Source of the DNA: a bacterium
Lineage (GTDB): Bacteria; Patescibacteriota; Minisyncoccia; Minisyncoccales; PEYH01
Assembly: GCA_021163545.1 (NCBI GenBank)
Contig: JAGGTU010000045.1
Coordinates: 1 to 45,599 of the forward strand
DNA length: 45,599 nt
Direction of reading: 5' to 3'
The notes beneath the pieces were generated by a model. The model saw only the letters and a program-made list of their open reading frames with translations, had not been told where the DNA came from and made no database searches. Every line of letters begins with the position of its first letter. Positions within the stretch are counted from its first letter, which is position 1. Positions 4,599 to 41,732 of this stretch are shown here, piece by piece. The translations under genes were made by a program, and so were the position numbers.

Positions 4599-4631
4599 TA
4601 TATTTTCTTATTCAAAAAGGAGGTGACAAAA

Positions 4632-5210
4632 ATGGAGCGTTCTTTAACATTGAAAGGTCACAGACTTATGCTACTTTATAAGAAGGAGGAGATAGATAAG
4701 GCAATCAAGAGGTTGGCAAAAGAAATATATAAAACTTACTGCTCATACCTTACCGAGAAAAACTTTCTTTTAAAAATAATCGTGATCTTAGAGGGAGGAA
4801 GATGGTTTGATGCAGCCCTTGCAATGGAGCTTGGTAAATTGTTTCCCGTGGGCGCTATAGCCCACGATAGTATTTCTGTTTCAAGTTATAAAGATAATAC
4901 CAGCCCCAAAGAGGTTCAAATCTTAAAAGATACAAAAAACCCCATCGGTGGACAGCATGTATTAATAGTTGATGATATAGTGGATACAGCTGGAACGCTG
5001 GCAAAATTGTTAAAAATACTGAAGGCGCGAAATCCAGCCTCTTTGAGAACTTGTGTGCTCATAGACAAGACACCAAGAAGAGAAAAGGAAATCCCTTTGG
5101 ACTTTGTTGGGTTTAGGCTTCCAAAACCACTATTCCTCATAGGCTTTGGTTTAGACTGGGCAGAGGCGGGACGCGAATTAGAGGATATCTATTATATTGA
5201 GGGATTGTAG
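4632..5210 (+). CDS. hpt: hypoxanthine(-guanine) phosphoribosyltransferase
   Basis: PRPP-binding motif VLIVDDIVDTAGTL. The ATG at 4632 follows the SD AAGGAGGTGA (4617-4626). The GTG at 4623 in the ORF track lies inside that SD, so it is unlikely to be the start. Confidence 0.85.
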   Translation: MERSLTLKGHRLMLLYKKEEIDKAIKRLAKEIYKTYCSYLTEKNFLLKIIVILEGGRWFDAALAMELGKLFPVGAIAHDSISVSSYKDNTSPKEVQILKDTKNPIGGQHVLIVDDIVDTAGTLAKLLKILKARNPASLRTCVLIDKTPRREKEIPLDFVGFRLPKPLFLIGFGLDWAEAGRELEDIYYIEGL

Positions 5211-5231
5211 CAATATTTGGGAGTTTAAAAC

Positions 5232-5258
5232 AGGTCGCCTTTTGGCGGCCTTTTATTT
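5232..5258 (+). terminator. intrinsic terminator after hpt
   Basis: AGGTCGCC-TTTT-GGCGGCCT hairpin followed by TTTATTT. Confidence 0.6.
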
Positions 5259-5286
5259 AGATAAAAATTGTGTAAAATAATATAAT

Positions 5287-5490
5287 ATGGAAATAATTGG
5301 TCAAGATATAAGACAATATATACAAGAAAGAATTTTAGAAAAAAAGCCCCAGACCCAAGAGGAAGTACTGAAAATTTTAGATGAGGTTTTTCATGAACTA
5401 AAAGCCACAGGTAAAATAAGAAGTGACGCAGATTTAGAATATTGGAAAAATTATTTTTCTCAGAGGTGGCAACAATTTTTAGATAGATAA
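5287..5490 (+). CDS. hypothetical small protein (67 aa)
   Basis: Only an ORF with no recognisable motif. A TAAAAT -10-like box at 5273-5278 would give a near-leaderless mRNA. Confidence 0.4.
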   Translation: MEIIGQDIRQYIQERILEKKPQTQEEVLKILDEVFHELKATGKIRSDADLEYWKNYFSQRWQQFLDR

Positions 5491-5494
5491 TAAT

Positions 5495-6076
5495 ATGCTT
5501 AAATATACAGATCTCAAGAAAGGAGTTATTTTTTTAATGGATAATCAGCCTTTTTTGGTTTTGGAATCAAGTCTAGTGAAATTACAGCGTCAAAAGCCTA
5601 TTTTAAGGGCAAAAATTAAAAATTTAAAAACAGGAGCAATAATCACCCAAAGTTTTACTCAGGCAGATGAATTTGAAGAAGCAGAGATTGAGAAAAAACC
5701 ATTACAATTTCTTTATAGTCACAGAGGAAAATTTGTTTTTATTGAACCACAAAAACCTCAAAATAGAATTGAGTTTAATGAAGATTTTATAGGTGAAAGG
5801 TGGAAGTATTTGAAAAAAGGAGCTCAGGTCAATGCAATTATTATTAATAATCAAATTGTTGATATTGAGCTGCCAATCAAAATGGAATTTAAAGTTATTG
5901 AAGCCCCACCTTCTTTTAAAGGTGATACTGCTCAAGGAGGCACCAAAACTGTGACTATTGAGACCGGCGCAAGGATAAATGTGCCGATGTTTATAGAGGA
6001 AGGGGATATAATAAGAGTGAATACTCAAGATGGCACTTATGTTGAAAGGGTGAAAAGCAGAGATAAAAGCAATTAA
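5495..6076 (+). CDS. efp: translation elongation factor P
   Basis: The N-terminus (LKKGVIFLMDNQPFLVLES...KIKNLKTGA) and the three-domain length of 193 aa are typical of EF-P. Confidence 0.92.
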   Translation: MLKYTDLKKGVIFLMDNQPFLVLESSLVKLQRQKPILRAKIKNLKTGAIITQSFTQADEFEEAEIEKKPLQFLYSHRGKFVFIEPQKPQNRIEFNEDFIGERWKYLKKGAQVNAIIINNQIVDIELPIKMEFKVIEAPPSFKGDTAQGGTKTVTIETGARINVPMFIEEGDIIRVNTQDGTYVERVKSRDKSN

Positions 6077-28046: not shown

Positions 28047-28355
28047 TTATTCAATTACAATTTCTTTATTCAAAAAGAAAACAATTTGTTTCCAAAAATT
28101 TATTAATTTAATTTTAGCTTTTTGATGCCACCAAAGTTTAATTTTTTCTCCTAAATTCAAGAAAAAAGGAAGGATTTTTTGGTGCCAAAAAGTACTAAAA
28201 GAGCCAAAATATGGTTTTGTTGAAGTGACAACTTTATGAACAAACTCTTCTGCCTCCTCTTGTCCCGGAGGACCTATTTGGGAAAAAGTAAATGAAGGCA
28301 GAAAGAAAACACCTATTAAAGCTAAAAACAGAGCAATAATTATTAAAACTCTCAT
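28047..28355 (-). CDS. small membrane/secreted hypothetical protein (102 aa)
   Basis: N-terminal hydrophobic helix. An ATGA start/stop overlap with gltX suggests translational coupling. Confidence 0.45.
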   Translation of the reverse strand: MRVLIIIALFLALIGVFFLPSFTFSQIGPPGQEEAEEFVHKVVTSTKPYFGSFSTFWHQKILPFFLNLGEKIKLWWHQKAKIKLINFWKQIVFFLNKEIVIE

Positions 28356-29935
28356 GATTGAAGCAAATTTTTTGCTTTTTTAATTCTTTCCAAAGTTTTT
28401 TCTTTTCCTAAAATTTCAGCTATTTCAAAAGGTGGGGCAGAAGCTTCTTTTCCAGTCAAAGCCACTCTTATTGGCCAAAGGAAGTATCCCCTATCCCCTA
28501 CTTTGCTGAACTTTTCTGCTTCTTTGACAAGCATGTTTTTAAGATTTTCTGCATTCCAATCTTTTTCTTCAATTTTTTGCAAAGTCTCCTCTGCTCTCTC
28601 AAGTGCCTCTAAAATATTTTTTTCTTCCGCATCCTTCCATTTAAGTAGCTCCTTTTTGTAATTTAAATCTTTTTTAAAGAAAAAATCTATCAGTTCAGGA
28701 ATTTCTGAAAGCACTCTTAATCTTTCTTGATAAATAGCAATCATCTTTTTTATTTTCTCAAATTCAACTATCTCCCCCGTCTCTTGAATTATAAAACTCT
28801 GCCTGATGATTTCTCCTCCAAATACTGGAGGGTATTTGTCACTTTCAATTTTTGGTTTTATTAGTTCAGCTTCAATAAGGTATGGAAGACACAAGTTGGT
28901 TAATTTATCTATATTTTTCTGACGAATATAAAAACCATTGAACCAAATTAGTTTTCTTTTATTAAAAACTGCAGGTGACTTTTGGCATCTTTCCAGAGAA
29001 AATTCTTTTATAAGCGAATTCAATGAGTAAATCTCTCTTTCTTTGTCTGGATTCCAACCTAAAAATGCCATAAAATTAATTAAGGCTTCGGGTAAAAACC
29101 CTTCTTTTCTATATTCTCTTAGAGCAACAGCACCATGCCGCTTACTTAATTTACTTCTATCTGGACCCAAAATTAATGGTAAATGGGCAAATTGAGGAGG
29201 TTTGAGTCCTAAGGCCTCATACAAAAGAATTTGTTTGGGAGTATTTGGAATGTGATCTTCTCCTCGAATAACATGTGTGATTTTCATTTCGAAATCATCT
29301 ATTACCGCTGCTAAATTATAAAGAGGAGTATTTTCGTCTTTAGCAATCACAATGTCTCCAAACTCTGAAGAATCACTTTCAATCTTTCCATGAATTAAAT
29401 CGTTAAAGACAACTTTTTTATTAGGGTTTTTAAACCTTATTACATATGGCTTTTTTGCCTCCAAATACTCTTTAACCTCTTTTTCACTGAGATTTCTACA
29501 TTTTCCGTTATATCTGGGAGGCTGGCCGATGCTCATAAAGTATTGTCTTTTTGCCTCTAGCTCTTCTTCAGAACAAAAACAATAATAAGCTTTGCCTTCA
29601 TCTAACAATTTTTGGATATATTTTTTATAGATTTCTTTTCGCTCACTTTGCCTATAAGGACCATAGTTACCAATATAACCTTCCCCCTCAGCTACAGGAC
29701 CCTCATCCCACATTAATCCCAACCATTTTAGCCCTTCTATGATATCTTTTTCCCATTCTTTTTTAGATCTTTCTAAATCTGTATCCTCAATTCTTAAAAT
29801 GAAAACACCGTTGTGTTTCTTGGCAAAGAGATAATTAAATAAAGCAGTACGCGCAGTACCTATATGAAGAGGCCCGGTTGGAGATGGAGCAATTCTTACC
29901 CGGGGTCTTGCGATTTTAAGTTCTAAGTCGGCCAT
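28352..29935 (-). CDS. gltX: glutamyl-tRNA synthetase
   Basis: RIAPSPTGPLHIGTARTALFNY (HIGH region), ILRIEDTD and KLSKRHG (KMSKS equivalent). Confidence 0.92.
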   Translation of the reverse strand: MADLELKIARPRVRIAPSPTGPLHIGTARTALFNYLFAKKHNGVFILRIEDTDLERSKKEWEKDIIEGLKWLGLMWDEGPVAEGEGYIGNYGPYRQSERKEIYKKYIQKLLDEGKAYYCFCSEEELEAKRQYFMSIGQPPRYNGKCRNLSEKEVKEYLEAKKPYVIRFKNPNKKVVFNDLIHGKIESDSSEFGDIVIAKDENTPLYNLAAVIDDFEMKITHVIRGEDHIPNTPKQILLYEALGLKPPQFAHLPLILGPDRSKLSKRHGAVALREYRKEGFLPEALINFMAFLGWNPDKEREIYSLNSLIKEFSLERCQKSPAVFNKRKLIWFNGFYIRQKNIDKLTNLCLPYLIEAELIKPKIESDKYPPVFGGEIIRQSFIIQETGEIVEFEKIKKMIAIYQERLRVLSEIPELIDFFFKKDLNYKKELLKWKDAEEKNILEALERAEETLQKIEEKDWNAENLKNMLVKEAEKFSKVGDRGYFLWPIRVALTGKEASAPPFEIAEILGKEKTLERIKKAKNLLQS

Positions 29936-29944
29936 ATTTTTATT

Positions 29945-31111
29945 TTAAGCCCTCCCTTCTTTAAAATCAACGAGATTTAACTCTTTCAGGATATATTGTG
30001 CGATGATTTTAGCCGAATTTGGGACAGCCAATTCCTTGGCTCTTTTTCTCATTTCTTTTAATATTTCAGGCTTCGAGAAGAACAAATGCAGTTTTTTAAC
30101 CAGAAAATGAGGTCTGAAATTGGGTTGCTCAATTACTAGAGCAGCTCCATATTTTTCAATGATATATGCATTTTCTTTTTGATGATTTTGCGCCGATTCA
30201 GGCAAAGGTACCAAAATTGAAGGAAGCCCATTTGCTAAAATTTCAAAAATCGAACCAGAACCTGCCCTTGAAATCACTAAATCCGCTACTTTAAAGGCAT
30301 GTTTTAGTTGTTCTTCATTCAAAAATCCATACAAATGATAATATTTTTGCAGGGATTTTTCTTTTTGAAGAATGACTTTCGTTTGAAGCTGCATCTCTTT
30401 AAGGTTGTTTTTTCCACACTGATGGATGACTTCGAATAACTTTAGAATGTCCAAGAGAGCTTGCAGAATGACATCATTTATTCTTTGGGCCCCTTGAGAC
30501 CCTCCTAATATTAAGAGAACTGGTTTTTCGTTGGTTAAATTAAAAATTTTCTCTCCGGTTCCTTTATTTCCTTTTGTAATTTCTTCTCTGATAGGATTCC
30601 CAACAAAAAGACATTTTTCTTTTGTTCCCGTTTGTGAGAAATATTTTGTATGTTTGAGTGGAAAAGCTAAGAATATTTTTTTAGCGAAACGAGCGCAAAA
30701 TTTGTTAGCCCATCCAGGTATTGAGTCAGATTCGTGTAAAAATATGGGAACATCTAAAAAGGATCCTGCTAAAACCACAGGCAAAGAGCCATATCCTCCC
30801 TTGCTAAAAATTAACCTTGGCTTTATTATTCGAAGAAATAAAAATGCTTGCCCAATTCCAGCCAACATTTTAAAAATATCAATAAAATTAGCAAAAATAG
30901 CGCTAGGGGTAATATATCTTCTAATTTTACCTGCTCTAATATACTTTACTTGCACCCCTTCTCTAATTAGATTTTCTACAAATTGGTCTTTTGGGCCAAG
31001 ATAAAAAAACTTTAAAGCTTTTGCTTTGGAATGTTTTTTTAATTCTCTTATAATTGCAATTATTGGAAAAGTATGCCCTCCTGTTCCTCCTCCGCAAAAT
31101 ACTAAGTTCAT
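29945..31111 (-). CDS. murG: UDP-GlcNAc:lipid I N-acetylglucosaminyltransferase MurG
   Basis: GGGTGGHTFP N-terminal motif and GT28 layout. It lies next to ftsW. Confidence 0.88.
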   Translation of the reverse strand: MNLVFCGGGTGGHTFPIIAIIRELKKHSKAKALKFFYLGPKDQFVENLIREGVQVKYIRAGKIRRYITPSAIFANFIDIFKMLAGIGQAFLFLRIIKPRLIFSKGGYGSLPVVLAGSFLDVPIFLHESDSIPGWANKFCARFAKKIFLAFPLKHTKYFSQTGTKEKCLFVGNPIREEITKGNKGTGEKIFNLTNEKPVLLILGGSQGAQRINDVILQALLDILKLFEVIHQCGKNNLKEMQLQTKVILQKEKSLQKYYHLYGFLNEEQLKHAFKVADLVISRAGSGSIFEILANGLPSILVPLPESAQNHQKENAYIIEKYGAALVIEQPNFRPHFLVKKLHLFFSKPEILKEMRKRAKELAVPNSAKIIAQYILKELNLVDFKEGRA

Positions 31112-31119
31112 AGTTTTAT

Positions 31120-32211
31120 TTATTTTTTGCTTATATTTAATAATATACCACAGCCAGCCAGTTCACAAATTAAGGCCGAGCCACCATAACTTAAAAAAGG
31201 CAAAGGCATTCCAGTTAGAGGTAAAACTCCAATCATTGTACCCATATTTATAAAAGCCTGGATAGTAATCCAAGAAGTTACCCCAACGGCCAAAAGTTTT
31301 CTAAACTCATCGTTTTGTTCTTTAGCGCATCTAATTCCCCTCCAGGCAAAGAGTAAAAATAAACAAACCACCACAAATGTGCCTAAAAATCCCACCTCCT
31401 CTCCAAAGACAGCAAAAATTGAGTCTGTCATAGGTTGAGGCAAAAACCCTAACTTCTGTTCTCCTAATCCCAATCCTTTTCCAAACAATCCACCTGAGCC
31501 TACCGCAATTAAAGCTTGTTTTATATGATACCCTTTTCCTAAAGGATCTGTTTCAGGATTTAAAAACACAAAGAGCCGGTTAAATCTATAGGGAGTAAGT
31601 AAAATTAAAAGACAGAGAGCGACTCCTCCAATACAGGCTAAGATAACGATGTGTGAAAAAGGAGTCTTGGCAGAAAAATACAATATCCCACCCAGCAAAC
31701 CGAACATCGCCAATGTACTAACATCAGGTTGAAGAATAAAAATTATGCTTAAAATCGCCAAAATTGTCAAGAATGGTAGCAGCATATTCTTGAACATAGG
31801 TCTTTCTCTTTCCTGCTTTGCCAACCAAGAGGAAAGATAAATTAAAAAGGCCAATTTTAATAATTCAGAGGGTTGAAAAGAAAATCCAAAAATATTGATC
31901 CATCTTCTTCCGCCAAAAATTGTGACTCCTAACTTTGGTACAAAAACCAAAGAGGTCAAAAAAACCGCAAAAATAAAAATCCAAAAAGAATTTTTTCTTA
32001 AAAAATCAAGATCAAGTCTATATAAGACAAAAGCCAGAATAACACCGGGAACAAGACCGTATAATATTTGATGAAATAAAAAATAAGTAGATTTTCCCGT
32101 TAACTGTAAAGATTTAGCGCTTGAGGCTCCAGCGATTGCTATGAGACCAATCAAATTCAAAAGAATTACTACAGATAAGAGAATATAGTCTAGCTTTTTG
32201 TGTTTTTTCAT
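31120..32211 (-). CDS. ftsW: SEDS-family peptidoglycan polymerase FtsW/RodA
   Basis: 10-TM SEDS layout with QPSELLK, PDVST and TDSIFAVFGEE motifs. Position is between murD and murG. Confidence 0.88.
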   Translation of the reverse strand: MKKHKKLDYILLSVVILLNLIGLIAIAGASSAKSLQLTGKSTYFLFHQILYGLVPGVILAFVLYRLDLDFLRKNSFWIFIFAVFLTSLVFVPKLGVTIFGGRRWINIFGFSFQPSELLKLAFLIYLSSWLAKQERERPMFKNMLLPFLTILAILSIIFILQPDVSTLAMFGLLGGILYFSAKTPFSHIVILACIGGVALCLLILLTPYRFNRLFVFLNPETDPLGKGYHIKQALIAVGSGGLFGKGLGLGEQKLGFLPQPMTDSIFAVFGEEVGFLGTFVVVCLFLLFAWRGIRCAKEQNDEFRKLLAVGVTSWITIQAFINMGTMIGVLPLTGMPLPFLSYGGSALICELAGCGILLNISKK

Positions 32212-33572
32212 TTTTTTGCTAATTTTTGAAGATATTTTTTAAATTGGTCTCCCCTATCCTTATAATCTTTAAATAACCCAAAACTGGCCGACGCTGGAGA
32301 CAATAAACAGGTACCTTTTTTTGTAACTTTCAAAGCTGTTTTTACAGCTTCTTCCATATTGTTTACAAGAAAACATTTTGGTTTGTATTTCTTTGTGGCT
32401 ATTTTTTGAATCTCTTTATAAATTCTTTTACCCGTCTCTGGAAACAAAATAAGATTTGGAATTTTCTTTTTTATTATCATTTTAATCAACTCTGTGAAGT
32501 CTTGCTTTCTTTCATATCCTCCCAACATTAAGGTTTCTATGTTTTGGAGGGCTTCTAAGGCCTCCATCGTTGCCTCTGGTACGGTAGCCAAAGAATCATT
32601 ATAATAAGAAACACCTTTAAACCTACCCACAAATTCTAACCTATGTTCTAAGGATTTAAACTTGCAAACCACCTTTCTTATTATGTTGGGAGAAATGTCA
32701 AATACTGAAGATACTGTCACGGCAGCCATGACATTTAAAAGATTATGTCTGCCTTTTAGAGGAATTTCTTTAATTGGAAGAATTTTTGTATCTTCAAAAA
32801 CAATCCAGCCATTTTTCAGATAACACCCTTTTTTATTATGAAAACCAAAAGGAATAGTCTTAGCTTTTGTCTGGGAGGCTAATTTTCTAAGGGCTGATAT
32901 TTCATAGTTAAATATAAAAATGTCTTTTTCTGTTTGCCAGCGGGTAATATTCCTTTTAGTAGAAAAATATTCTTGAAAGTTCTTATAATAATCAAGGTGC
33001 TCTTTATAGATATTTAAAAAGACAGCAATTTTAGGGCTTATTTTTAAACCTTGCAATTGATGGGAAGAGAGTTCAAAAACAAAAAGACACTTTCTTTTTC
33101 CTTTTTTGAAAAAATCCAAGGGCGGTTTTCCGATATTTCCAATTAATTCAACCCTCTTTCCCCCTTTCTTTAAAATTTCATAAATTAAAGTTGAGGTTGT
33201 ACTTTTTCCTTTTGTGCCGGTAATACCTATCACTTGGTTTCCGTAATTTTCCAAGAAAATATCTGTCTGACTAGTTAAAATATGATTTTCTGATAAATAT
33301 GGCTTTATCTTTTCTGTCGGAATTCCGGGAGTTTTTATTATTACCTCATATTTTTTGATGGCCTCAAGGTATCCTGGTCCCAAAAAAGCCTTAATATTTC
33401 TCAGTTTTATCAACTTTTTTAAATTTTTATTAAGTTTTTTAAATTCTACCTGATCTGCTAGACCAATTTTTTTATTGGGAAACAATCTTCTTAAAAATCT
33501 CAAACTTGATTTGCCTTCTCTACCAAGGCCTAAAATTAATATAGTTTTTTGTTTTAGCAAATCTAACTTCAT
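32208..33572 (-). CDS. murD: UDP-MurNAc-L-alanine--glutamate ligase (MurD-type)
   Basis: Mur ligase P-loop GITGTKGKSTTSTL. The N-terminal Rossmann motif ILGLGREGKS is typical of MurD. Confidence 0.88.
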   Translation of the reverse strand: MKLDLLKQKTILILGLGREGKSSLRFLRRLFPNKKIGLADQVEFKKLNKNLKKLIKLRNIKAFLGPGYLEAIKKYEVIIKTPGIPTEKIKPYLSENHILTSQTDIFLENYGNQVIGITGTKGKSTTSTLIYEILKKGGKRVELIGNIGKPPLDFFKKGKRKCLFVFELSSHQLQGLKISPKIAVFLNIYKEHLDYYKNFQEYFSTKRNITRWQTEKDIFIFNYEISALRKLASQTKAKTIPFGFHNKKGCYLKNGWIVFEDTKILPIKEIPLKGRHNLLNVMAAVTVSSVFDISPNIIRKVVCKFKSLEHRLEFVGRFKGVSYYNDSLATVPEATMEALEALQNIETLMLGGYERKQDFTELIKMIIKKKIPNLILFPETGKRIYKEIQKIATKKYKPKCFLVNNMEEAVKTALKVTKKGTCLLSPASASFGLFKDYKDRGDQFKKYLQKLAKK

Positions 33573-33604
33573 TTATTTTAGAATATCACAGAATTTCTTA
33601 TTTA

Positions 33605-33637
33605 TAAAGATAAAAGCGCCCCTCGAAGCGGGGCGCC
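33605..33637 (-). terminator. intrinsic terminator after the 151 aa gene
   Basis: On the minus strand, a GCGCCCC-GCTTCGA-GGGGCGC hairpin followed by TTTTATCTTT. It lies between the cassette and the murD start. Confidence 0.7.
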
Positions 33638-33644
33638 TGTCATT

Positions 33645-34100
33645 TTATTCTACATACTGCATAAGGTTGGCTGTTTTTTGCTTTAAAGTTTGCCATTCAA
33701 AAAGAATATCTGTCACCTCTTTAATCAATCTCCACAGTTTCCGGGTACTTTTACCAGTTAGAGGTTCAATCATCACCGAATTTCTATAGATGCTAAAGCC
33801 CAGAAATTTAAGCTTCCTAAGATCTCCCGTCTTCGGATTGATCTTTTTTATTTCTCGGGATAAAGGATGTTGAGAACGCTCGTTTATTTCTTCTTCAGTA
33901 ATTCGCCAATTTGCTTTCATGACTACAGTTTTTGGGCTTATTATTAAGGCCAACCAAGGATTCGGAAGAGGTCTTGGTATCAGCCTAACAGCAATTTCTA
34001 ACTCGTCCCTTCTGAAGACTCGATCAGGTTCCCAATAGTAATGCTTCTTTTTGGATTTTCTATCCCACCAAAACCAACACCTTTTTAGAAACCCAACCAT
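33645..34100 (-). CDS. hypothetical basic, Trp-rich protein (151 aa), partner of the nuclease gene
   Basis: The ORF has a strong SD AAGGAGGTGA (34104-34113) that overlaps the nuclease stop codon. I recognise no motif. Confidence 0.6.
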   Translation of the reverse strand: MVGFLKRCWFWWDRKSKKKHYYWEPDRVFRRDELEIAVRLIPRPLPNPWLALIISPKTVVMKANWRITEEEINERSQHPLSREIKKINPKTGDLRKLKFLGFSIYRNSVMIEPLTGKSTRKLWRLIKEVTDILFEWQTLKQKTANLMQYVE

Positions 34101-34111
34101 TGGTCACCTCC

Positions 34112-35125
34112 TTAAAGCAACTTAGGTTGAGAAAATTTCTTCAAAGGAGCAACTTCCTCAAGTTGCTCTCTGATGATTTCAATATCTACTTTACCCCAAT
34201 CAAATTGACTGACTGGGATAGGTTGTGAGGTAATAAGTTCTGGATGCGAGCAAATTTCAAGATAGTCACAGTACCAGCAATGATTGCCTGTTATTTTTGG
34301 AAAGAGCTGTTTATTTTGAGAGAGCAAAAAGGATTTGATTAATACCGCAAGGTCGGCATAGTGATGTTCGTTTCTTGGGGTTACAAGAACTCTTTTGTCT
34401 ATTTTTTCTTCTGTGATTGGGTTTTTGCCTTTCCATCCAAGAGGATAGCGAATAATACCAGCCTCCTTTTTGCCAAAGATTCTTCTAAATGCCCAGCTGT
34501 ATATCGTAAACTGGTAATCATGATGAACAGGGAACTGAAGACGCGGATCCTCTTCTCCATAATCTTGCCATCCTGTCTTAAGATCTACAATATACCACTT
34601 GCCACTTCCATAAGGAATCTCTCTTATTTGGTCTATAGCTCCGACAAGGAGAACGTCGTATCTGCCAGGAGCACAAACAGTAAATCTCCGCTCAACCGGT
34701 GCAACGGGCGGAGGAGCATTACGGTTATCTTCCCAATACTTTGCAATCATTGAAGCACCAAGTTCTTTATATTTTTCTTTCTCTTTCTCTATTTCAGTCT
34801 TTGTTTTACCTCGAAATCTAATCTTGCAAGGATTATGGAAACGCTTAGCATTCTTTTCTTTTAAAACATCCTCCCAGAGACTAATCCATAATTTCACAGC
34901 CGATTGCTTGCTTGTAGGAAAAAGAATCGTCAATCCCCTCTTCAACCTTTTTGCTTGTTGCTCTGGAGTAAGTCGATAAAAACTTGCAATAAGTTGATGT
35001 ATTGCCTGCCCAAAAACAAGATAAATTGCTTGAGGAACCTCTATTTTCGCCTCATATCTTAAAAAATAACAATAAGGACAACGGCCGTAATTCAAAAGCT
35101 TCGTTGCCGAAATTCTAATTGCCAT
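34112..35125 (-). CDS. Cas4/AddB-like PD-(D/E)XK nuclease with a 4-Cys iron-sulfur cluster signature
   Basis: N-terminal cysteines GRCPYCY and a C-terminal CWYCDYLEIC (CxxCx5C). Motif II is GAIDQI, motif III is IVDLKTG, and a QxxxY motif (YQFTIYSW) is present. The SD AAGGAGGTGA lies at 35130-35139. Confidence 0.8.
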   Translation of the reverse strand: MAIRISATKLLNYGRCPYCYFLRYEAKIEVPQAIYLVFGQAIHQLIASFYRLTPEQQAKRLKRGLTILFPTSKQSAVKLWISLWEDVLKEKNAKRFHNPCKIRFRGKTKTEIEKEKEKYKELGASMIAKYWEDNRNAPPPVAPVERRFTVCAPGRYDVLLVGAIDQIREIPYGSGKWYIVDLKTGWQDYGEEDPRLQFPVHHDYQFTIYSWAFRRIFGKKEAGIIRYPLGWKGKNPITEEKIDKRVLVTPRNEHHYADLAVLIKSFLLSQNKQLFPKITGNHCWYCDYLEICSHPELITSQPIPVSQFDWGKVDIEIIREQLEEVAPLKKFSQPKLL

Positions 35126-35162
35126 CTTTTCACCTCCTTTGGTAAAGTTCTTGAAATGCTTT

Positions 35163-35191
35163 ATTTAACAAAAAAATTGTTTTAATGTCAA
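35163..35191 (-). promoter_or_regulatory. candidate promoter of the nuclease cassette
   Basis: On the minus strand: TTGACA (35191-35186), a 17 nt spacer, TTAAAT (35168-35163). The -35 box overlaps the stop codon of the upstream membrane protein gene. Confidence 0.5.
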
Positions 35192-35874
35192 GCTAGTTTT
35201 TCTTTAGGAGGATGGGTGTCTTTATAACCGAGATAAACAAGATAAGCGACAAGAAGATAAAAAATATGAAAAAGTCTTCCTGCAGGAATATAAAGAACTC
35301 CTATAAGAGCTATTCCTAAATAAATCACAAAAGCATACAAAGAATAGAAATTGGCAAGATTTTTTGAAGTGAACCCTTCTTTTTTTAAATTTCGAAAGAT
35401 AAAGAAAAGTAATCCCAAGATAGAGATAAAAATCATTCCTCCCGAAAAATAACCATGGGGAGGCGCTTTTGAAATATTATAATAAACCTCTCCCCTTGTT
35501 GAAATTTCCTGGGCTCTCATTAAAAATCCAAAATAATATAAAAAGAAGAGTATTGTTCCCAGCAAAGAAGAGATAAAAAGAGTTATTCTTTTGGGATATA
35601 TTTTCCGGGCAATATAAACTAAACCTAAAATGCCATGGATTCCAAACCACACTCCTCCAAAAAAGATGATTGTACGAGCAAACGAAGGAAAAACTTTCCA
35701 ACAACTTAAGGCAAATCCGTTAAAAATCCACCATAAAGCCCCACTGAACCAGAAACTTGCATAAAGAGAATCTGTCAATGATAGTTTTTTATTTCTTCCA
35801 ATCCAATAAGAAGAGAAAGCACAGATGAGACCTATGTAGAATGAAGTTAAACCATCTAAAATAGAAGTGTCCAT
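35188..35874 (-). CDS. polytopic membrane protein, function unknown (228 aa)
   Basis: About 7 hydrophobic helices. There is a 1 nt gap to the upstream gene, so translation is probably coupled. Confidence 0.6.
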   Translation of the reverse strand: MDTSILDGLTSFYIGLICAFSSYWIGRNKKLSLTDSLYASFWFSGALWWIFNGFALSCWKVFPSFARTIIFFGGVWFGIHGILGLVYIARKIYPKRITLFISSLLGTILFFLYYFGFLMRAQEISTRGEVYYNISKAPPHGYFSGGMIFISILGLLFFIFRNLKKEGFTSKNLANFYSLYAFVIYLGIALIGVLYIPAGRLFHIFYLLVAYLVYLGYKDTHPPKEKLA

Positions 35875-35875
35875 A

Positions 35876-36865
35876 TTAATAAATTTTTTTAATTTGGTTT
35901 ATTTTTCTTCCATCGCTCCAAAATCCAATTTCTAAAGCCTCCTTATTTTCTCCCTTGACAACCTCACAATTTTTATTAAAAAGAGCACAATCTATTGTAG
36001 CGTCAATAATCTTTCTATATCCATAATAACTCAAATTATTTGGGGGATAAAAAGCCGAGACATGATTACTCCATAGAGGAGGATTTCCATAAGCGTCAGA
36101 AGGAATTAAAAACATATGTCTGTTTAAACCTTCTGTTTTTTGAAGGAGTTTTTTCTTTACCTTTTCTCTTAAGACCAATCTGTCGCTTTGAGAAAAAAGG
36201 GCAACAAACCAAGTCTCGGGATTAAGATTTCTTAAATCTCCAAAAGGGAGTCCATAAATACTTGCTGGAAGATAAGGAAAGGTTTCTCCTGGAGTGATCA
36301 AAATTATTGCTTTGGGCAAAGGGATTTCTTCCGATAAAATATTTGTTGCTACCGCTCCACCCATTGAGGAACCAATTACAATAAATTGAGAGAGGTCATT
36401 TTTTGGAGCGATTTTTTTAATTTCTAAAATTGCTTCTTTTAGAACTTGTCTAGCAGTAAGAGGGAATACTTTTGGCCGGAATAGACTAAAAGTACCCTTT
36501 TGATAAGAAAGAAAAATAACAATATTTCCTCTCTTTGCCTCGTGGAAAATTAAAGGAGAATACATTTTGTAGTCTACAGGAGAAGACGGAGCCAACCCGT
36601 GCAAAAATAAAATTACCGGAGAAGAATTTAGATCTACCCCTTTGGGAATAAAGAGATAAAAATTGTTATCTTGGTGGGTGAATTTTTTAACTAAAACCTC
36701 CTTTGTTTTGTAATCGCAAGGGTTGTTTAGAAGATTGGGCCACACACTCTGATTCTGTCCTTTTGGATGATAGAATAAGGAGTACCAAACAAAATAAAAG
36801 TAATAAAAAACCCCAAGAAAGATAAGAAAGATGATTATTGATATTATTAGACTTCTCTTTCCCAT
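35876..36865 (-). CDS. membrane-anchored alpha/beta hydrolase
   Basis: N-terminal TM helix, FLHGLAPSS, and a GSSMGG nucleophile elbow. ATG at 36865 is preferred over the TTG at 36904, which would overlap the upstream gene. Confidence 0.65.
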   Translation of the reverse strand: MGKRSLIISIIIFLIFLGVFYYFYFVWYSLFYHPKGQNQSVWPNLLNNPCDYKTKEVLVKKFTHQDNNFYLFIPKGVDLNSSPVILFLHGLAPSSPVDYKMYSPLIFHEAKRGNIVIFLSYQKGTFSLFRPKVFPLTARQVLKEAILEIKKIAPKNDLSQFIVIGSSMGGAVATNILSEEIPLPKAIILITPGETFPYLPASIYGLPFGDLRNLNPETWFVALFSQSDRLVLREKVKKKLLQKTEGLNRHMFLIPSDAYGNPPLWSNHVSAFYPPNNLSYYGYRKIIDATIDCALFNKNCEVVKGENKEALEIGFWSDGRKINQIKKIY

Positions 36866-36881
36866 TTTAGCGGAGCGAGAA

Positions 36882-38180
36882 CTATTTAATGTATAATTCT
36901 TCAAATTGCTTTAGAAGAAATGGTAGTTTTTTCCTTTTTTTTGCTTGTTTGAGAGCCAAGGAAAAAGCCAAGATTGTTTCTTTTTTTGTTCCCACACACT
37001 CAAAAGGTTTGGTTTCTTTTTTCCCTAATAATTGTAGCATAAGAGGCAAAAGAGATTTGTCCTCAAAGAGATTTTTTCCAAAAATCTTGACCAAATCTTT
37101 CTCTTTTAAAAATGGATACAAAAGGGTAAACACAAAAAGGCATTTTGGACATTTTAAACACCATTTTGGTTTTCTTGCTGAAAGTTTATAAGCATTATTG
37201 CAGCTTATAAATACAAAATGATATTTTTTTAGCTTTGCAAAGATTTGGGCAATTTCTAACTCTGAAAATTGTCGCAAAGCACTAAAAACATCTATATTTT
37301 TTAAAAGATATTTTTTAGCTAATCTGTTGAATTCTTTCTCAAACTTTGAAGTTTTTGACCATTGATGATTTATCCATCTCCCTTTGTATTTTAAATTAGG
37401 TTCATTTGCACTTTTCTCCCAAGAAAAAGCAACTCGTCCATAATTAAACAACGCCGCCACAATTAAGGAAAGATAAGCCAAAAAGGCAGAAAAAGGAACA
37501 TGTCCATTTAAAAACTTGCCAGATTTATTGAACTTCAAGAGTAAAGGGTCAAGCTTTCTTTCAATGAAAATGATTTCTTTTAATTTGGCAATTTCTGAAA
37601 TTTTTACCTGTGGAACTCTGGCATTTAAAATCAACCCTCCTAAAATATTACCTTTCTTTTTTAAAAGCTCTATTGTTACCGGAGAATCTTTCCCCCCTCC
37701 GATTGGCACTAAAATTTTATTTTGGCTAAATTCATTTTTGCTTGCTTTATATAAAGGTTTTTTCTGATTAACTTTAATGTTTAAAAAGCCACGTTTTGTA
37801 AAATCAATTTGGTTCTTATAAAAATATTCTCCCATGCCATTTAAAATAATTTTTCTTAAAAACATTTTTTCTTCCTTGTGTAAATTTCCCGCATCAATCA
37901 ATATTTTTGGCGAGCAGGTCAATTTCCAATAATTGAGCATCTCAATGAGGCCTAAATGAAAAACAAGATTTTCTAAATCTTCTTTGTCTATGTTTTTAAG
38001 ATGTTTGAAAGGAACTTTTTTAACCGTGATTTTCGTTTTAAATTTTAAATCTCTTAAACCAGAGGTAGATCTAATTAAAAAATTAAACCAAATTTCCAAA
38101 TCAGGTTTTCGATACTTCCATTCAAACCCTTGATAAACAAACTCAGGATATTTTTTTCGTAAAGTGTTTGTTTTTTTCAT
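36882..38180 (-). CDS. PP-loop (adenine nucleotide alpha-hydrolase-like) protein with a CxxCxxC motif; possible MurL-like UDP-MurNAc-L-Ala-L-Glu epimerase
   Basis: VPIGGGKDSPV resembles the SGGxDS PP-loop. WCLKCPKC forms a cysteine cluster. The gene lies directly downstream of mraY in the dcw-type cluster. The MurL assignment is an inference from context only. Confidence 0.45.
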   Translation of the reverse strand: MKKTNTLRKKYPEFVYQGFEWKYRKPDLEIWFNFLIRSTSGLRDLKFKTKITVKKVPFKHLKNIDKEDLENLVFHLGLIEMLNYWKLTCSPKILIDAGNLHKEEKMFLRKIILNGMGEYFYKNQIDFTKRGFLNIKVNQKKPLYKASKNEFSQNKILVPIGGGKDSPVTIELLKKKGNILGGLILNARVPQVKISEIAKLKEIIFIERKLDPLLLKFNKSGKFLNGHVPFSAFLAYLSLIVAALFNYGRVAFSWEKSANEPNLKYKGRWINHQWSKTSKFEKEFNRLAKKYLLKNIDVFSALRQFSELEIAQIFAKLKKYHFVFISCNNAYKLSARKPKWCLKCPKCLFVFTLLYPFLKEKDLVKIFGKNLFEDKSLLPLMLQLLGKKETKPFECVGTKKETILAFSLALKQAKKRKKLPFLLKQFEELYIK

Positions 38181-38192
38181 ATTGGATTTTGA

Positions 38193-39287
38193 TTATCCCA
38201 GTAGTGCAACAGCTACCCCTACAATTGCAGCAATTATACCAATCACCCAAAAACGCATTGTTACTTTATAATGGGGCCAGCCTTTTGCCTCAAAATGATG
38301 GTGAATCGGAGCCGCCAAAAATATTTTCTTTTTGAAAAATCTCTTTGACAAAAGTTGTAAAATTACTGAGGCAGACTCGATAACCAGCAAGATTCCTATA
38401 ATTGGTAAAACTAAAACCGAATCTGTTAAAAATGCAACAACGGTTAATGCCGGACAGAGCCCCATTATTCCTGTTTCTCCCATATAAAATCTAGCAGGTG
38501 GAATGTTAAACCACAAAAACGCCAAAATCGCTCCAGCAACTGTTGCGCAAAAAGCAGCAAGGTCAATTTGCCCTTTAAAAAAGGCAATTGTACCATAAGC
38601 ACCAAAGATAGTAGCGAAAGCTCCACCCGCCAGTCCATCTAATCCATCAATAACTCCTCCTGAATAGGTTGCCATTGTCACTAAGATAAAGAAGGGAATA
38701 TATAAAGCACCCAAATAAATATCACCTACTCTTGGGATATGTAAAGTTTGCCATTCTAATTTGTAATAAAACCAAAGTCCTCCAATTAACCCGATTAAAA
38801 ACATCAAAAATAACCTTTTTTTCAAACTTAATCCTCCTCCAATGTATTTTCCTCCACCTTTCACTTGGAGAATGTCATCTACTAATCCCACTAATGCCCC
38901 TGAGACAAGAGCAAAAAAAGGAAGCCATGTTTGAGAACGGCTCAAGAAATTTAACTTTTGAAAAATCCAAAAATCAATTTTTGATAAAAGAAAAAAAATA
39001 ATTCCTACAAGCAATGGAACCACCCATACAAGAAGTCCTCCAAAACGAGGTACCTTTGTTTCTTTTTCTGTATGGAATTTCGGAAATATTTCTAACTTTT
39101 TGCCATCAATTGATTTTTCTCGTGGAGACTTCTTCCAGAGTTTATGCTTGTATAAAAAATTGGTTAAAAAAGGAGTCAAGAAGAAAGCCAGGCAAAAAGA
39201 GAAAGAGCCCAAGAAAAAAACCTTCAAGACGTTTATTATTAAAAACGGATCATATAAATATTGAGGAAGTTGTGTTTGTCCTACCAT
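38193..39287 (-). CDS. mraY: phospho-N-acetylmuramoyl-pentapeptide transferase MraY
   Basis: 10-TM layout with DDILQV, GLDGLAGG and APIHHHFEAKGW. Confidence 0.92.
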   Translation of the reverse strand: MVGQTQLPQYLYDPFLIINVLKVFFLGSFSFCLAFFLTPFLTNFLYKHKLWKKSPREKSIDGKKLEIFPKFHTEKETKVPRFGGLLVWVVPLLVGIIFFLLSKIDFWIFQKLNFLSRSQTWLPFFALVSGALVGLVDDILQVKGGGKYIGGGLSLKKRLFLMFLIGLIGGLWFYYKLEWQTLHIPRVGDIYLGALYIPFFILVTMATYSGGVIDGLDGLAGGAFATIFGAYGTIAFFKGQIDLAAFCATVAGAILAFLWFNIPPARFYMGETGIMGLCPALTVVAFLTDSVLVLPIIGILLVIESASVILQLLSKRFFKKKIFLAAPIHHHFEAKGWPHYKVTMRFWVIGIIAAIVGVAVALLG

Positions 39288-40351
39288 ATATACGCTTGTT
39301 TAATCCAAGTTATAAGTTTCTCCATGTCTTTAAAGCGATTTTTTGAGCCCAAAATTACATTTATAATAAAGCCGTCTTTTAAAGTTGGGTGTTTGATCAC
39401 CAAAAGAAAGCATTCTTGTGCAAGAGGGGTGTAGCCGGTTTTGCCAAAAATAATCTCATTTGAATATTTTGCAAGAAGTTCGTTTGTATTTTTTACTTTA
39501 TGATGGAAAGAATTGTCGGTTCTATATAAATAAAATTCTTTTTTTTGAGTAAGTTTAATTAAAAAATCAGCCCGCGGATCTGTTTTACTTTTTTGAATAA
39601 TAAACTTTGCTAGTTTGGCTAAGTCTTTTGCTGTTGAATAGTTATATGGCTCACCTGAGAAATCCGGATCAAGTCCTATAGGGTCAACGAATCTTGAATT
39701 TATAAGTCCTATTTTCTCTGCCTCTTTTTGCATTAGCCCAACAAACTTTTTTACTCCTATTACCTCTGCTAAGGCAAAAGTAGCATCATTGCTTGATTCA
39801 AGCAGCATAGAATGCAGAAGATCTTTAACGAAAAACCTCTCCCCTTCTTTGAAAAACCCTATCTCTTCTTCTGTTTCAATAGCTTCCTTTGAAAATTGTA
39901 CAATTTTGTTTAAATCGTAGTTTTCTACGATTATAAAGCCTGATAAAATCTTGCTTAAACTGGCAATGGGCACTCTTTTTTGAGGGTTTTTAGCAAACAA
40001 GAGGTATTCGTTTCCAAGTTCGTCTACTGCCACAGAAAGGACTGCAGTAGCATCAATGTCCAACGGATCTACGTCCCATCTTCGGAAAGGTTTTAAGAAT
40101 GAATAATCTACAGGAATTTGGGCAAGCATTTGATTATAAATCTTGGAAGTATATTTCCAATTAAGATATCCTTCAAATATCTGTTTAAACTCAAACAAAG
40201 CAGCTCCAATGCCACAAAGTAGTAATAATATTAGAGAAAATTTAAAAAAGCGCCTCAGCTTTGGTTTGTTCTGCCAGTTGAAAAATCTGCCCAAATTTAT
40301 TAAAAAATTCAACAACTTATTTATCCTCATTTTTATCTTCCTGCTTTTCAA
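39281..40351 (-). CDS. serine-type D-Ala-D-Ala carboxypeptidase (S11, PBP5-like)
   Basis: SxxK (IASLSKIL), SxN (ESSNDA) and KTG (GKTGYT) motifs, plus an N-terminal TM anchor. The exact start is uncertain because the ORF overlaps the aspS 3' end. Confidence 0.8.
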   Translation of the reverse strand: MKSRKIKMRINKLLNFLINLGRFFNWQNKPKLRRFFKFSLILLLLCGIGAALFEFKQIFEGYLNWKYTSKIYNQMLAQIPVDYSFLKPFRRWDVDPLDIDATAVLSVAVDELGNEYLLFAKNPQKRVPIASLSKILSGFIIVENYDLNKIVQFSKEAIETEEEIGFFKEGERFFVKDLLHSMLLESSNDATFALAEVIGVKKFVGLMQKEAEKIGLINSRFVDPIGLDPDFSGEPYNYSTAKDLAKLAKFIIQKSKTDPRADFLIKLTQKKEFYLYRTDNSFHHKVKNTNELLAKYSNEIIFGKTGYTPLAQECFLLVIKHPTLKDGFIINVILGSKNRFKDMEKLITWIKQAYIW

Positions 40352-41732
40352 CTTTTATATGTAGTTCTTTTAATTGTTCTTCTCCTACTTCAGATGGGGC
40401 ATTCATCATCAAATCGCGGGAGTCTCCTGTTTTTGGGAAAGGAATAACCTCTCTAATGTTTGGTTCTTTAAGCAATATAGCAAGAAGCCTATCAAGACCA
40501 AGCGCAATTCCACCATGAGGAGGGACTCCATATTCAAAAGCCTCAAGAAGATGGCCAAATTTTTCTTTGACCTCTTCTTTTTTATGACCCAACACCTCAA
40601 AAACAGTTTCTAAAATTTCTTTTTTGTAACTTCTTAAACTTCCTCCCCCAATTTCATATCCATTTAAGACTAAATCATATTGATATGCTAAAATTTCCCC
40701 CGGCTTTTCCTTAATCAATGAGAGATCCTCTGTTTGAGGACGAGTGAAAGGGTGATGCATTGCTTTCCATCTTTTTTCTTCTTTTGACCATTCAAACATA
40801 GGAAAATTAACAACGAACAAAAAGGCTAATTCGTCATCATTTTCTTTGTTTTCTCGTAAATCCGGCTTGTCAGTTCCATACTCTTTCATGACATCTTGAT
40901 AATTTAAACGTAAAAAAGGAAACTCTTTGATTCTTTTTTCCGGAAATATTTTCTTAACAACCTCTTGTATCATTTTTTCAACTATTTGAAGAATATCTTC
41001 TTGTTCTACAAAAGACATCTCTATATCAATTTGGGTAAACTCTGCTTGTCTGTCAGCTCTCGGATCTTCATCTCTAAAACATCTTGCAATTTGAAAATAT
41101 TTTTCTACTCCTGCAACCATTAAAAGCTGTTTATATTGTTGAGGGCTTTGTGGAAGAGCATAAAATTTTCCAGGTTGAAGACGCGAGGGAACCAAAAAAT
41201 CTCTTGCACCCTCAGGTGTTGATTTGGTTAAAATAGGGGTTTCAACTTCTACAAAACCATTATCTTTTAAGAAATTTCTTACTTCATGAATCACCTCCTG
41301 GCGAAGAATCAAATTTCTTTTTAATCTCTCTCTTCTTAAATCTAAATATCGATATTTTAATCTTTTTTCCTCGCTTATTTCGTATCCTTCACTCTGAATT
41401 GAAAAAGGCAAACTTTTTGCCTCAGATAGTATTTTAAGGTCCTGGGCCAATAATTCTATTTCTCCTGTAATCAAATCAGGATTTTCTGTGCCTTTTGGTC
41501 TTTTTTGGACTACTCCAGTTATCTCTACTACCCACTCTGGTTTTAGTCGTTTTGCTAAATCAAAAACCTGAGAGGATGTATCTTTTGCAAATGTTACCTG
41601 CAGAAGACCAGATCTATCTCTTAGATCTATAAAAATAATTTTTCCATGAGTACGAGCAGTATTTACCCAGCCACAGACTTTTACTTGTTGGTTAATAAAA
41701 TTTGGTGTTTGAAAAATAAGAGTTCTTTTCAT
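40317..41732 (-). CDS. aspS: aspartyl-tRNA synthetase, bacterial-type core without the GAD insertion domain
   Basis: FYALPQSPQQYKQLLMVAGVEKYFQIARCFRDEDPRADRQAEFTQIDIEMSF, then DKPDLRE runs almost directly into NFPMFEW...MHHPFTRP. Motif 3 is GGIALGLDRL. Confidence 0.92.
   Translation of the reverse strand: MKRTLIFQTPNFINQQVKVCGWVNTARTHGKIIFIDLRDRSGLLQVTFAKDTSSQVFDLAKRLKPEWVVEITGVVQKRPKGTENPDLITGEIELLAQDLKILSEAKSLPFSIQSEGYEISEEKRLKYRYLDLRRERLKRNLILRQEVIHEVRNFLKDNGFVEVETPILTKSTPEGARDFLVPSRLQPGKFYALPQSPQQYKQLLMVAGVEKYFQIARCFRDEDPRADRQAEFTQIDIEMSFVEQEDILQIVEKMIQEVVKKIFPEKRIKEFPFLRLNYQDVMKEYGTDKPDLRENKENDDELAFLFVVNFPMFEWSKEEKRWKAMHHPFTRPQTEDLSLIKEKPGEILAYQYDLVLNGYEIGGGSLRSYKKEILETVFEVLGHKKEEVKEKFGHLLEAFEYGVPPHGGIALGLDRLLAILLKEPNIREVIPFPKTGDSRDLMMNAPSEVGEEQLKELHIKVEKQEDKNEDK

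Follow-up and report, generated by a model that had tools for sequence, protein, structure and literature searches.

What is a DNA nuclease doing in the middle of a cell wall gene cluster? This question is raised by a contig of 45,599 nucleotides (JAGGTU010000045.1 of assembly GCA_021163545.1; the whole stretch is hereafter called the window) from an uncultured, Pacebacteria-like bacterium of the Candidate Phyla Radiation (CPR). On the minus strand of the window, the genes for a 337 amino acid (aa) nuclease and a 151 aa basic protein form a two-gene unit between a group of murL, hydrolase, and membrane-protein genes and murD. Both open reading frames (ORFs) are present as they had been noted in a preliminary description (Table 1), which took the pair for a self-contained cassette and suggested a compact defense, phage-derived, or DNA repair module. 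The source genome assembly comprises 485 kb at ~35% G+C (GC) and is ~90% complete, and the locus lies on its contig C31.

As argued below, we tentatively read the unit as an accessory iron-sulfur (Fe-S) nuclease for DNA ends or flaps that would be recruited by the beta sliding clamp and accompanied by a dispensable, translationally coupled helper, and we give this reading somewhat less than an even chance of being correct.

The nuclease and its C-terminal tail

The larger protein is, judged by its sequence and modeled fold, a stand-alone PD-(D/E)XK enzyme of the Cas4/AddB/AdnA type that carries all catalytic residues. It matches PF12705 (PDDEXK_1) with 87.4 bits against a cut-off of 22, wherein residues 4 to 292 align with positions 1 to 246 of the 247 in the profile, and it is the sole PF12705-type ORF in the source assembly. 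Ten residues are invariant in all 28 sequences of an alignment of homologs. These include the catalytic set of E145, D165, D181-x-K183, and Q205xxxY209, as well as C16, C283, C286, and C292, which are the predicted ligands of a [4Fe-4S] cluster (C-Xn-CxxCx5C). Thus, the PD-(D/E)XK core, the CxxCx5C element, and the QxxxY motif initially recognized by eye all hold in the profile alignment. A proposed N-terminal cysteine pair fares less well, as C16 is invariant but C19 is not conserved.

An AlphaFold2 model of the nuclease, with a mean predicted local distance difference test (pLDDT) score of 90.8, includes a helical insertion of ~90 aa (residues ~45-135). When this model was compared with the Protein Data Bank (PDB) by Foldseek, the top matches were AdnA (7sjr, E 2.5e-7) and ACE1 (9iab, E 4.9e-7), followed by Cas4 (4ic1), RecE, Dna2, AddAB, and Exo5. 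The profile match, the alignment, and the structural search therefore agree on the Cas4/AddB-like assignment that had been made at the outset. A sequence search of the PDB identified no solved structure close to the nuclease, with ACE1 as the best and non-significant match. Its best viral matches are PHROG families annotated as exonuclease (phrog_69, 1.7e-17). Relative to a close ortholog, the ratio of nonsynonymous to synonymous substitution rates (dN/dS) is 0.12, equal to that of murD, and the gene is under purifying selection. Stand-alone Cas4-family nucleases outside of CRISPR loci are common, and few have an assigned role. The enzyme described here constitutes a new, narrowly distributed subfamily of this well-known superfamily.

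The 26 genomes available from the same taxonomic family represent nine genera, and 24 of them, including three from the same genus as the source, encode an AddB-like protein of ~950-1030 aa. Because these genomes also have the larger protein, the 337 aa nuclease is an addition to it and not a replacement. The lack of an AddB-like ORF in the ~90%-complete source assembly is probably a gap. We had considered that the nuclease might be the only RecB-family enzyme of its lineage, but this was rejected given the ~970 aa AddB-like protein of same-genus relatives.

The last residues of the nuclease offer a possible indication of where it acts. The protein ends in QPKLL, and its homologs in the 28-sequence alignment end in QPRLL, QPRLF, or QPRLK[F/L]. 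P334 and L336 show no variation, and the pLDDT of the tail is 56. A segment that is invariant yet modeled with such low confidence bears the signature of a short linear motif. The bacterial clamp-binding motif is QLxLF or QLxLxL (PMC4564189), and the nuclease tail fits its positions Q1, L4, and [L/F]5 (or [L/F]6). Among the 432 ORFs of the genome that encode 100 aa or more, only two have a Q..L[LF] terminus, namely the nuclease and a 415 aa homolog of EndoQ (contig C34, positions 4565-5812, minus strand; TIGR00375, 2e-59; PDB 5zb8, E 2.5e-53).

EndoQ is mainly an archaeal enzyme. It binds PCNA by a C-terminal motif, and bacterial members have been reported to carry beta-clamp motifs at this location (PMC4858679). 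The homolog found here ends in QKTLF, a textbook beta-clamp-binding motif, and is a noteworthy CPR copy equipped with the bacterial type of clamp motif.

The tail of the nuclease is retained in orthologs that lack the small gene (genome G001 and locus L043) and is resembled by the tails of distant relatives of ~345 aa. Because it is kept where the small gene is missing, the tail is not a docking site for the partner protein. We regard it as a probable beta-clamp-binding motif, and, as such, it points toward a role in replication or repair over one in classic defense.

The small partner protein

The 151 aa protein is basic (pI 10.1) and contains eight Trp residues. Its AlphaFold2 model (pLDDT 86.7) comprises an N-terminal basic/aromatic (Trp-rich) helix, an alpha/beta core, and a long C-terminal helix. 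Although the preliminary description had seen no recognizable motif in this protein, the family alignment exposes an invariant one, NW...E..E.S.HPL...FS, in which N64, W65, E71, E74, S76, H78, L80, and F102 never change. The dN/dS value of 0.23 relative to a close ortholog indicates purifying selection. The alignment, this value, and the model confidence establish that the ORF has homologs and a coding signal. The family is exceedingly small. Three clusters turned up when 5.8 billion proteins were searched by word index, and 20 clusters at 50% identity when 1.84 billion representatives were searched exhaustively with a profile. There was no match in Pfam (even at an E value of 10), NCBIfam, PHROG, or PADLOC, a profile search of the PDB returned nothing, and Foldseek comparison of the model with PDB and BFVD gave no match with an E value below 0.2. 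The small protein is therefore the product of a real, conserved, and very rare gene whose family is undescribed.

A faint relationship to the Nfu_N domain emerges from several comparisons. The top PDB match to the model by Foldseek is SAV1430 (2ffm; E 0.28, probability 0.63, TM-score normalized to the target (TMt) 0.53), and the Nfu_N structures 1pqx, 2k1h, and 2ltl also are among the top 32 matches, all with E values above 0.2. The divergent protein P0049 clearly belongs to the family by hhalign (probability 96.5%, E 7e-10) and scores 27.1 bits against PF08712 (Nfu_N), for which the threshold is 27, while P0051 scores 19.3 bits and falls below. The best PDB sequence matches of P0049 are NFU1 N-terminal domains, which align exactly over the family segment HPL...FSI..S..IEP...W. 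An hhalign comparison of the core family with a bona fide Nfu_N protein from genome G017 was not significant. From this mixture of signals, we tentatively consider the small protein to be a divergent Nfu_N-like domain, with the chances roughly even.

The bona fide Nfu_N protein just mentioned (locus L115, positions 1474-1854 on C52; 36.8 bits) is encoded in G017 separately from the 151 aa family member of that genome. It begins with a hydrophobic/basic helix, and its architecture is like that of the 151 aa family, with which it has no detectable sequence similarity.

Expression signals and genomic history of the unit

If the two genes constitute an autonomous unit, then the signals for their expression should accompany them. 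The preliminary description had placed a candidate promoter over the stop codon of the preceding gene, and indeed the membrane-protein gene upstream ends with a TGA inside the -35 box. A generic consensus promoter scan did not list this TTGACA-N17-TTAAAT element, whose -10 box has no A at position 2. Phylogenetic footprinting was more informative. We aligned the 130 nucleotides (nt) upstream of nuclease orthologs from ten loci, among them those of G001, G003, G004, G016, G020, L043, L045, L111, and L112. TTGACA is strictly conserved in all ten, followed 17 to 18 nt on by TTAAAT, TAAATA, or TATAAT and then by an AAGGAGG Shine-Dalgarno (SD) sequence. The gene upstream varies among these loci and can encode the membrane protein, the hydrolase, MurL, MraY, an IS200 transposase, or a 640 aa protein, or it can be an insertion sequence (IS) remnant. 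The candidate promoter had been correctly placed, and it is kept regardless of what precedes it.

The same 10-mer, AAGGAGGTGA, stands before both genes, and its second copy overlaps the nuclease stop codon as first described. This layout would allow translational coupling of the small gene to the nuclease gene. None of ten neighboring genes (window 28352-41732) has an SD sequence, which the preliminary description had said of many of them. Of 349 long ORFs in the genome, just 14 have GGAGG in the 20 nt that precede them, such that SD-led translation is rare in this genome. The two cassette genes thus stand out by their mode of translation initiation. The full 10-mer precedes ~14 ORFs in the genome, one of which encodes acyl carrier protein.

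Table 1. Positions in the window of the two genes and of the signals and motif associated with them.
Feature	Position	Strand	Description
Promoter of the unit (candidate)	35163-35191	minus	TTGACA (35191-35186), 17-nt spacer, TTAAAT (35168-35163); sigma-70-type
Nuclease SD AAGGAGGTGA	35130-35139	minus	GGAGG core 7 nt before ATG; SD kept in orthologs
Nuclease gene	34112-35125	minus	ORF, 337 aa
C-terminal tail FSQPKLL plus stop	34112-34129	minus	candidate beta-clamp-binding motif Q-x-x-L-[L/F]
Small-gene SD AAGGAGGTGA	34104-34113	minus	overlaps last two bases of nuclease stop TAA (34114-34112)
Small-protein gene	33645-34100	minus	ORF, 151 aa
Intrinsic terminator AGGCGCCCCGCTTCGAGGGGCGCTT plus T-run	33605-33638	minus	hairpin 33638-33614, 9-bp stem, 7 GC pairs
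Extended -10-like element TGTGATATT	33573-33590	minus	outer cassette boundary; ends 9 nt before murD ATG

The GC-rich hairpin and T-run reported ahead of murD also are real, and they occur at the same position in G001, G003, G004, G009, G016, G020, L043, and L045. The stems differ in sequence among these relatives yet stay self-complementary through compensatory changes. In G001, which has no small gene, the hairpin lies directly 3' of the nuclease gene. Just beyond it, the extended -10-like element TGTGATATT is conserved in G001, G003, G004, G018, and L043 and partly in G016 and G020. Since murD has no SD sequence, this element is likely the promoter of a separate, nearly leaderless, SD-less murD-ftsW-murG-gltX mRNA that would start just past the cassette terminator. 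Because its promoter, SD sequences, and terminator are conserved by footprinting and accompany the nuclease gene across contexts, the proposal of a self-contained cassette with its own predicted signals wherever it is located is now well supported.

The genes around the unit, read along the minus strand, are aspS, an S11 peptidase gene, mraY, a MurL-like epimerase gene, and genes for an alpha/beta hydrolase (342 aa) and a polytopic membrane protein (228 aa) on one side and murD, ftsW, murG, and gltX on the other. Profile searches of the window proteins identified these neighbors as cell wall, hydrolase, or membrane genes, with no defense island. No cas genes adjoin the nuclease gene here or in any of ~12 orthologous contexts, and no Argonaute-like gene is present in the operon or its flanks. 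The MurL-like protein has 432 aa (window 36882-38180) and matches NF041275 at 3e-76, and its orthologs contain the Pfam domains MurL_N and MurL_epimerase_C. In an alternative route to D-Glu, MurL operates with an L-Glu ligase of the MurD2 type (PMC8788868). Because the adjacent protein is MurL-like, the MurD encoded beside the cassette (window 32208-33572) is probably such an MurD2-type L-Glu ligase.

The unit itself is not part of core peptidoglycan synthesis, because murL and murD are directly adjacent, with nothing between them, in five genomes of the family (G006, G014, G011, G023, and G025). These empty junctions bear out the early impression that the unit is foreign to the pathway around it. 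The corresponding mraY-murD junction is empty in G019, G024, and G017. An mraY-murD arrangement without murL is found in some family members (genus g9, G017, L111, and L112).

The unit is missing from most relatives, and the protein family is confined to a few uncultured CPR lineages. Within the taxonomic family, the small gene occurs in four of the nine genera and nuclease orthologs in three. In a wider sample of the order (401 genomes, 245 genera), nuclease orthologs are present in five genomes and the small gene in eight, distributed over two families. The two genes co-occur, in that the small gene is found in all five nuclease-positive genomes but in only three of the 396 nuclease-negative ones. 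In most loci, they are translationally coupled by layout or even overlap. The pair resides between murL or mraY and murD in genera g1 and g5 and at L111 and L112. It is accompanied by the hydrolase and membrane-protein genes at the source locus and in G004 and G020, by an IS200 transposase gene at L111, and by no other gene in G016 and L112. Elsewhere, the pair adjoins rpsB-tsf in G017. Family f17 (G114, L045/L046) has them in divergent orientation, ~3 kb apart, with a 640 aa gene between them and with CAP and sortase genes nearby. This ~640 aa neighbor was considered as a third component of the system and rejected, as its N-terminal domain has paralogs elsewhere in the genome, the f1 loci do not have it, and none of its domains is informative.

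Each gene also occurs without the other. The nuclease gene is alone at the junction in G001, which belongs to the same genus as the source, and at L043/L044, and it lacks the small gene at L047 and L050 as well. The small gene is alone between murL and murD in G018 and directly upstream of murD in G009, and neither G018 nor G041 (100% and 96% complete genomes, respectively) has any nuclease ortholog. Thus, the presence or absence of the cassette among relatives is indeed variable, with many empty junctions, but the two genes are not obligate partners, and the persistence of the small protein without the nuclease in G018 and G041 implies that it must be of some use apart from the nuclease. The reading frame of the small gene in G004 is shifted by a 10-bp deletion, ATTGCTGTTA (L068, 4673-4700). 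The mraY gene of G001 was recovered by tblastn as two overlapping pieces (L067, 10298-11544), which may reflect a frameshift. Both the deletion and the split gene could be either real decay or an error in a metagenome-assembled genome.

To reconstruct the history of the unit, maximum likelihood trees of the nuclease and murD were compared for 11 shared loci and were found to be congruent. This congruence indicates vertical co-descent, which implies that the unit in G017 relocated inside its own genome. The family f17 nuclease branches from within the f1 clade, with support of 97/98. We also tried the identity of GltX as a yardstick for lateral transfer and dropped it, as it saturates at 62-68% across the order and offers no resolution. 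The trees and gene orders together depict a unit that was passed on for the most part vertically in a single family, that was lost repeatedly, either whole or one gene at a time, and that relocated once and probably was transferred laterally once.

Judged by gene content, the murL/murD junction is a recurrent hotspot for the insertion and deletion of accessory genes. An IS481-like HTH_32 transposase fragment lies between the membrane-protein gene and the nuclease gene in G020 (L035, 10867-11214), and an IS200/Y1 transposase gene lies between mraY and the nuclease gene at L111 (3104-3778). The hydrolase and membrane-protein genes (window 35188-36904; L035, 11843-13583) show 84% and 83% identity between the source genus and G020, a member of another genus, whereas the identity of the flanking murL, murD, and nuclease is only 50-64%. 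G016, which belongs to the genus of G020, does not have this gene pair, and G001 lacks the membrane-protein gene. This pattern suggests that the pair is a second two-gene module that either was recently transferred laterally into the same junction or is under unusually strong constraint.

The composition of the unit had appeared by eye to be richer in GC than its surroundings, and the difference proves real but moderate. The nuclease gene (GC 0.391) is at the 91st percentile of the ORFs in the genome and the small gene at the 85th. For GC at third codon positions, the nuclease gene is at the 84th percentile and the small gene (0.368) at the 95th. By fit to the codon usage of the genome, they are at the 8th and 5th percentiles, respectively.

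Competing readings and known systems

The reading we favor is that of an autonomous accessory operon, composed of promoter, SD, nuclease, SD, small protein, and terminator, that is lodged at the murL/murD junction. Like its structural relatives, the nuclease would process DNA ends or flaps. Its disordered C-terminal QPRL[L/F] tail would recruit it to DNA via the beta sliding clamp, and such recruitment would make the enzyme replication- or repair-associated, additional to the AddB-like protein of the relatives. The small basic protein, translationally coupled to the nuclease, would help by binding either the nuclease or DNA without being essential, and, if its remote affinity to Nfu_N is real, it may help to load or stabilize the Fe-S cluster of the nuclease. 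That the helper is dispensable follows from the clean absence of its gene in G001 and L043 and its frameshift in G004.

Several observations weigh against this accessory nuclease model. The match of the tail to clamp motifs is imperfect, because Pro takes the place of the consensus Leu at position 2. Two genomes have kept the small protein in the absence of the nuclease. The link of the small protein to Nfu_N is weak, since the window protein has no Pfam match and a best Foldseek E value of 0.28, and an hhalign comparison of its family with a three-sequence alignment of Nfu_N fragments was not significant. The nested position of the f17 nuclease suggests at least one lateral transfer, and the patchy distribution and atypical composition and codon usage fit a defense gene or a foreign gene equally well.

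Indeed, the strongest competitor is a two-gene anti-phage or anti-plasmid module, wherein the nuclease would degrade invading DNA and the small protein would serve as a sensor, regulator, or inhibitor. Such a module could explain why the unit is patchy among close relatives, why its components are often lost, why it has its own promoter and terminator, and why its composition and codon usage are mildly foreign. Pointing in the same direction are the IS fragments found in relatives at this junction, the probable lateral transfer into family f17, and the close structural relative ACE1, which is defense-associated (PMC12094033). However, no system model of PADLOC-DB v2 was matched. The nuclease shows only weak similarity to Cas4 or Cas4-like models in this database (8.5e-7 or weaker), and the partner and three upstream genes yield nothing. 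The neighbors are housekeeping genes with no defense island among them, and the nuclease tree follows that of murD instead of displaying the rapid turnover of defense islands. The family is tiny and limited to a few CPR lineages, the nuclease is kept after loss of the partner and vice versa, and a clamp-binding-like tail is more typical of replication or repair factors. On this balance, the defense module entertained in the preliminary description is improbable, although it deserves more weight than the explanations that follow.

Less probable again is the proposal that the two genes are unrelated neighbors, in which case the small protein would belong with murD and other cell wall or division genes, or would be a general Nfu_N-like factor, and the nuclease gene would be an independent insertion. 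The small gene alone between murL and murD in G018 and directly upstream of murD in G009, its retention in G041 without a nuclease ortholog, and the solitary nuclease genes of G001, L043, L047, and L050 all are as this proposal predicts. It does not readily account for the pair remaining together after relocation away from murD (beside rpsB-tsf in G017, and in f17), for the coupled or overlapping genes of most loci, for the co-occurrence of 5/5 versus 3/396, or for the majority of murL-murD genomes that have no small gene.

Two further explanations are less likely than these. The unit could be what is left of a domesticated recombination system of a phage or mobile element, in which an exonuclease is paired with a single-strand annealing or DNA-binding protein. 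The PHROG exonuclease families as best viral matches (phrog_69, 1.7e-17), RecE among the structural matches, the basic partner (pI 10.1), and transposase fragments at the locus in relatives agree with this view. However, the small protein has no Pfam or PHROG match and no PDB or BFVD structural match to RecT/Redbeta, Erf, Rad52/Sak, or Sak4 types, the flanks of the unit are free of other phage genes in all contexts examined, and the nuclease co-diverges with murD, which leaves such an origin quite unlikely. Nucleotide salvage, wherein the nuclease would degrade imported or damaged DNA in a minimal-genome organism and the partner would modulate its activity, accords with the genome size of ~0.49 Mb, the strong expression signals, and general knowledge of CPR biology, but it is the least likely of all, as the unit is missing from most relatives of similar genome size, the contexts examined show no link to competence genes, and bulk degradation has no need of a clamp-binding tail.

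The accessory nuclease model also has a more ambitious extension, which we consider doubtful. The cassette might combine a clamp-tethered Fe-S nuclease with a dedicated, Nfu_N-like cluster-handling partner and mobilize itself by recombination. The partner would deliver or gate the cluster of a single client, and the nuclease would cut replicating foreign DNA or stalled forks. If true, this arrangement would represent a new functional class that links Fe-S trafficking to genome defense or maintenance in minimal-genome CPR bacteria. More generally, if the clamp and Fe-S links hold, the unit would show that ultra-small CPR genomes can add a replication-coupled nuclease and a dedicated helper for one Fe-S client. 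Otherwise, the nuclease remains an accessory enzyme with a narrow lineage range and limited wider significance. The clamp-like tail, the portable promoter, SD sequences, and terminator in an SD-poor genome, and the tiny partner family with its invariant polar motif provide handles for testing these ideas.

Among known systems, AdnA of mycobacterial AdnAB and AddB of Bacillus AddAB share with the nuclease a PD-(D/E)XK core, the N-terminal Cys plus C-terminal CxxCx5C arrangement for a [4Fe-4S] cluster, and membership in the PDDEXK_1 family, and they provide its best Foldseek matches (7sjr_A, 2.5e-7; 9np6_A, with a TM-score normalized to the query (TMq) of 0.53; and 4cej_B). Unlike these proteins of ~900-1200 aa with fused UvrD-like domains, the nuclease stands alone at 337 aa without helicase domains and has the ~90 aa helical insertion and the clamp-motif-like tail. 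Cas4 proteins (SSO0001, 4ic1; type I-C, 8d3q) belong to the same class of Fe-S RecB-like nucleases, have the same motif order, and are structural matches, but Cas4 models match the nuclease weakly (PADLOC, 8.5e-7; TIGR00372, 26.4 bits versus 65; PF01930, 14.3 versus 22.7). Moreover, the nuclease is ~130 aa longer than Cas4 and has no cas gene neighbors in the contexts examined.

ACE1, an Argonaute-associated and defense-associated enzyme of the Cas4 family (PMC12094033), is likewise a stand-alone nuclease of a similar size class and the second-best structural match (E 4.9e-7, TMt 0.60). It is co-encoded with a long-A prokaryotic Argonaute (pAgo), whereas no pAgo gene adjoins the nuclease gene, the two enzymes have ~16% identity, and the 151 aa partner is unrelated to Argonaute. 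With EndoQ and other repair nucleases that have clamp- or PCNA-binding tails (PMC4858679), the nuclease shares a C-terminal Q-x-x-L-[L/F] peptide on the disordered tail of a DNA nuclease. The fold of EndoQ is PHP and that of the nuclease is PD-(D/E)XK, and in the latter the motif has Pro at position 2 and clamp binding is predicted.

For the small protein, the closest known system is Nfu_N (PF08712; 2ffm/1pqx; NFU1, 2ltl/2ltm), a similarly small alpha/beta domain for which the statistical support is marginal. The family pattern HPL(A/S)..(I/L)...FSIY.(N/D)S.mIEP...W..(I/L) aligns with SPLA..LF...GV..VF...DsITV.K...W of Nfu_N. Unlike Nfu_N, the 151 aa protein has an N-terminal basic/Trp-rich helix, a long C-terminal helix, and no Pfam match. 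What is new at this locus, then, is an undescribed partner family together with a nuclease that is combined with a candidate clamp-motif tail and with portable expression signals.

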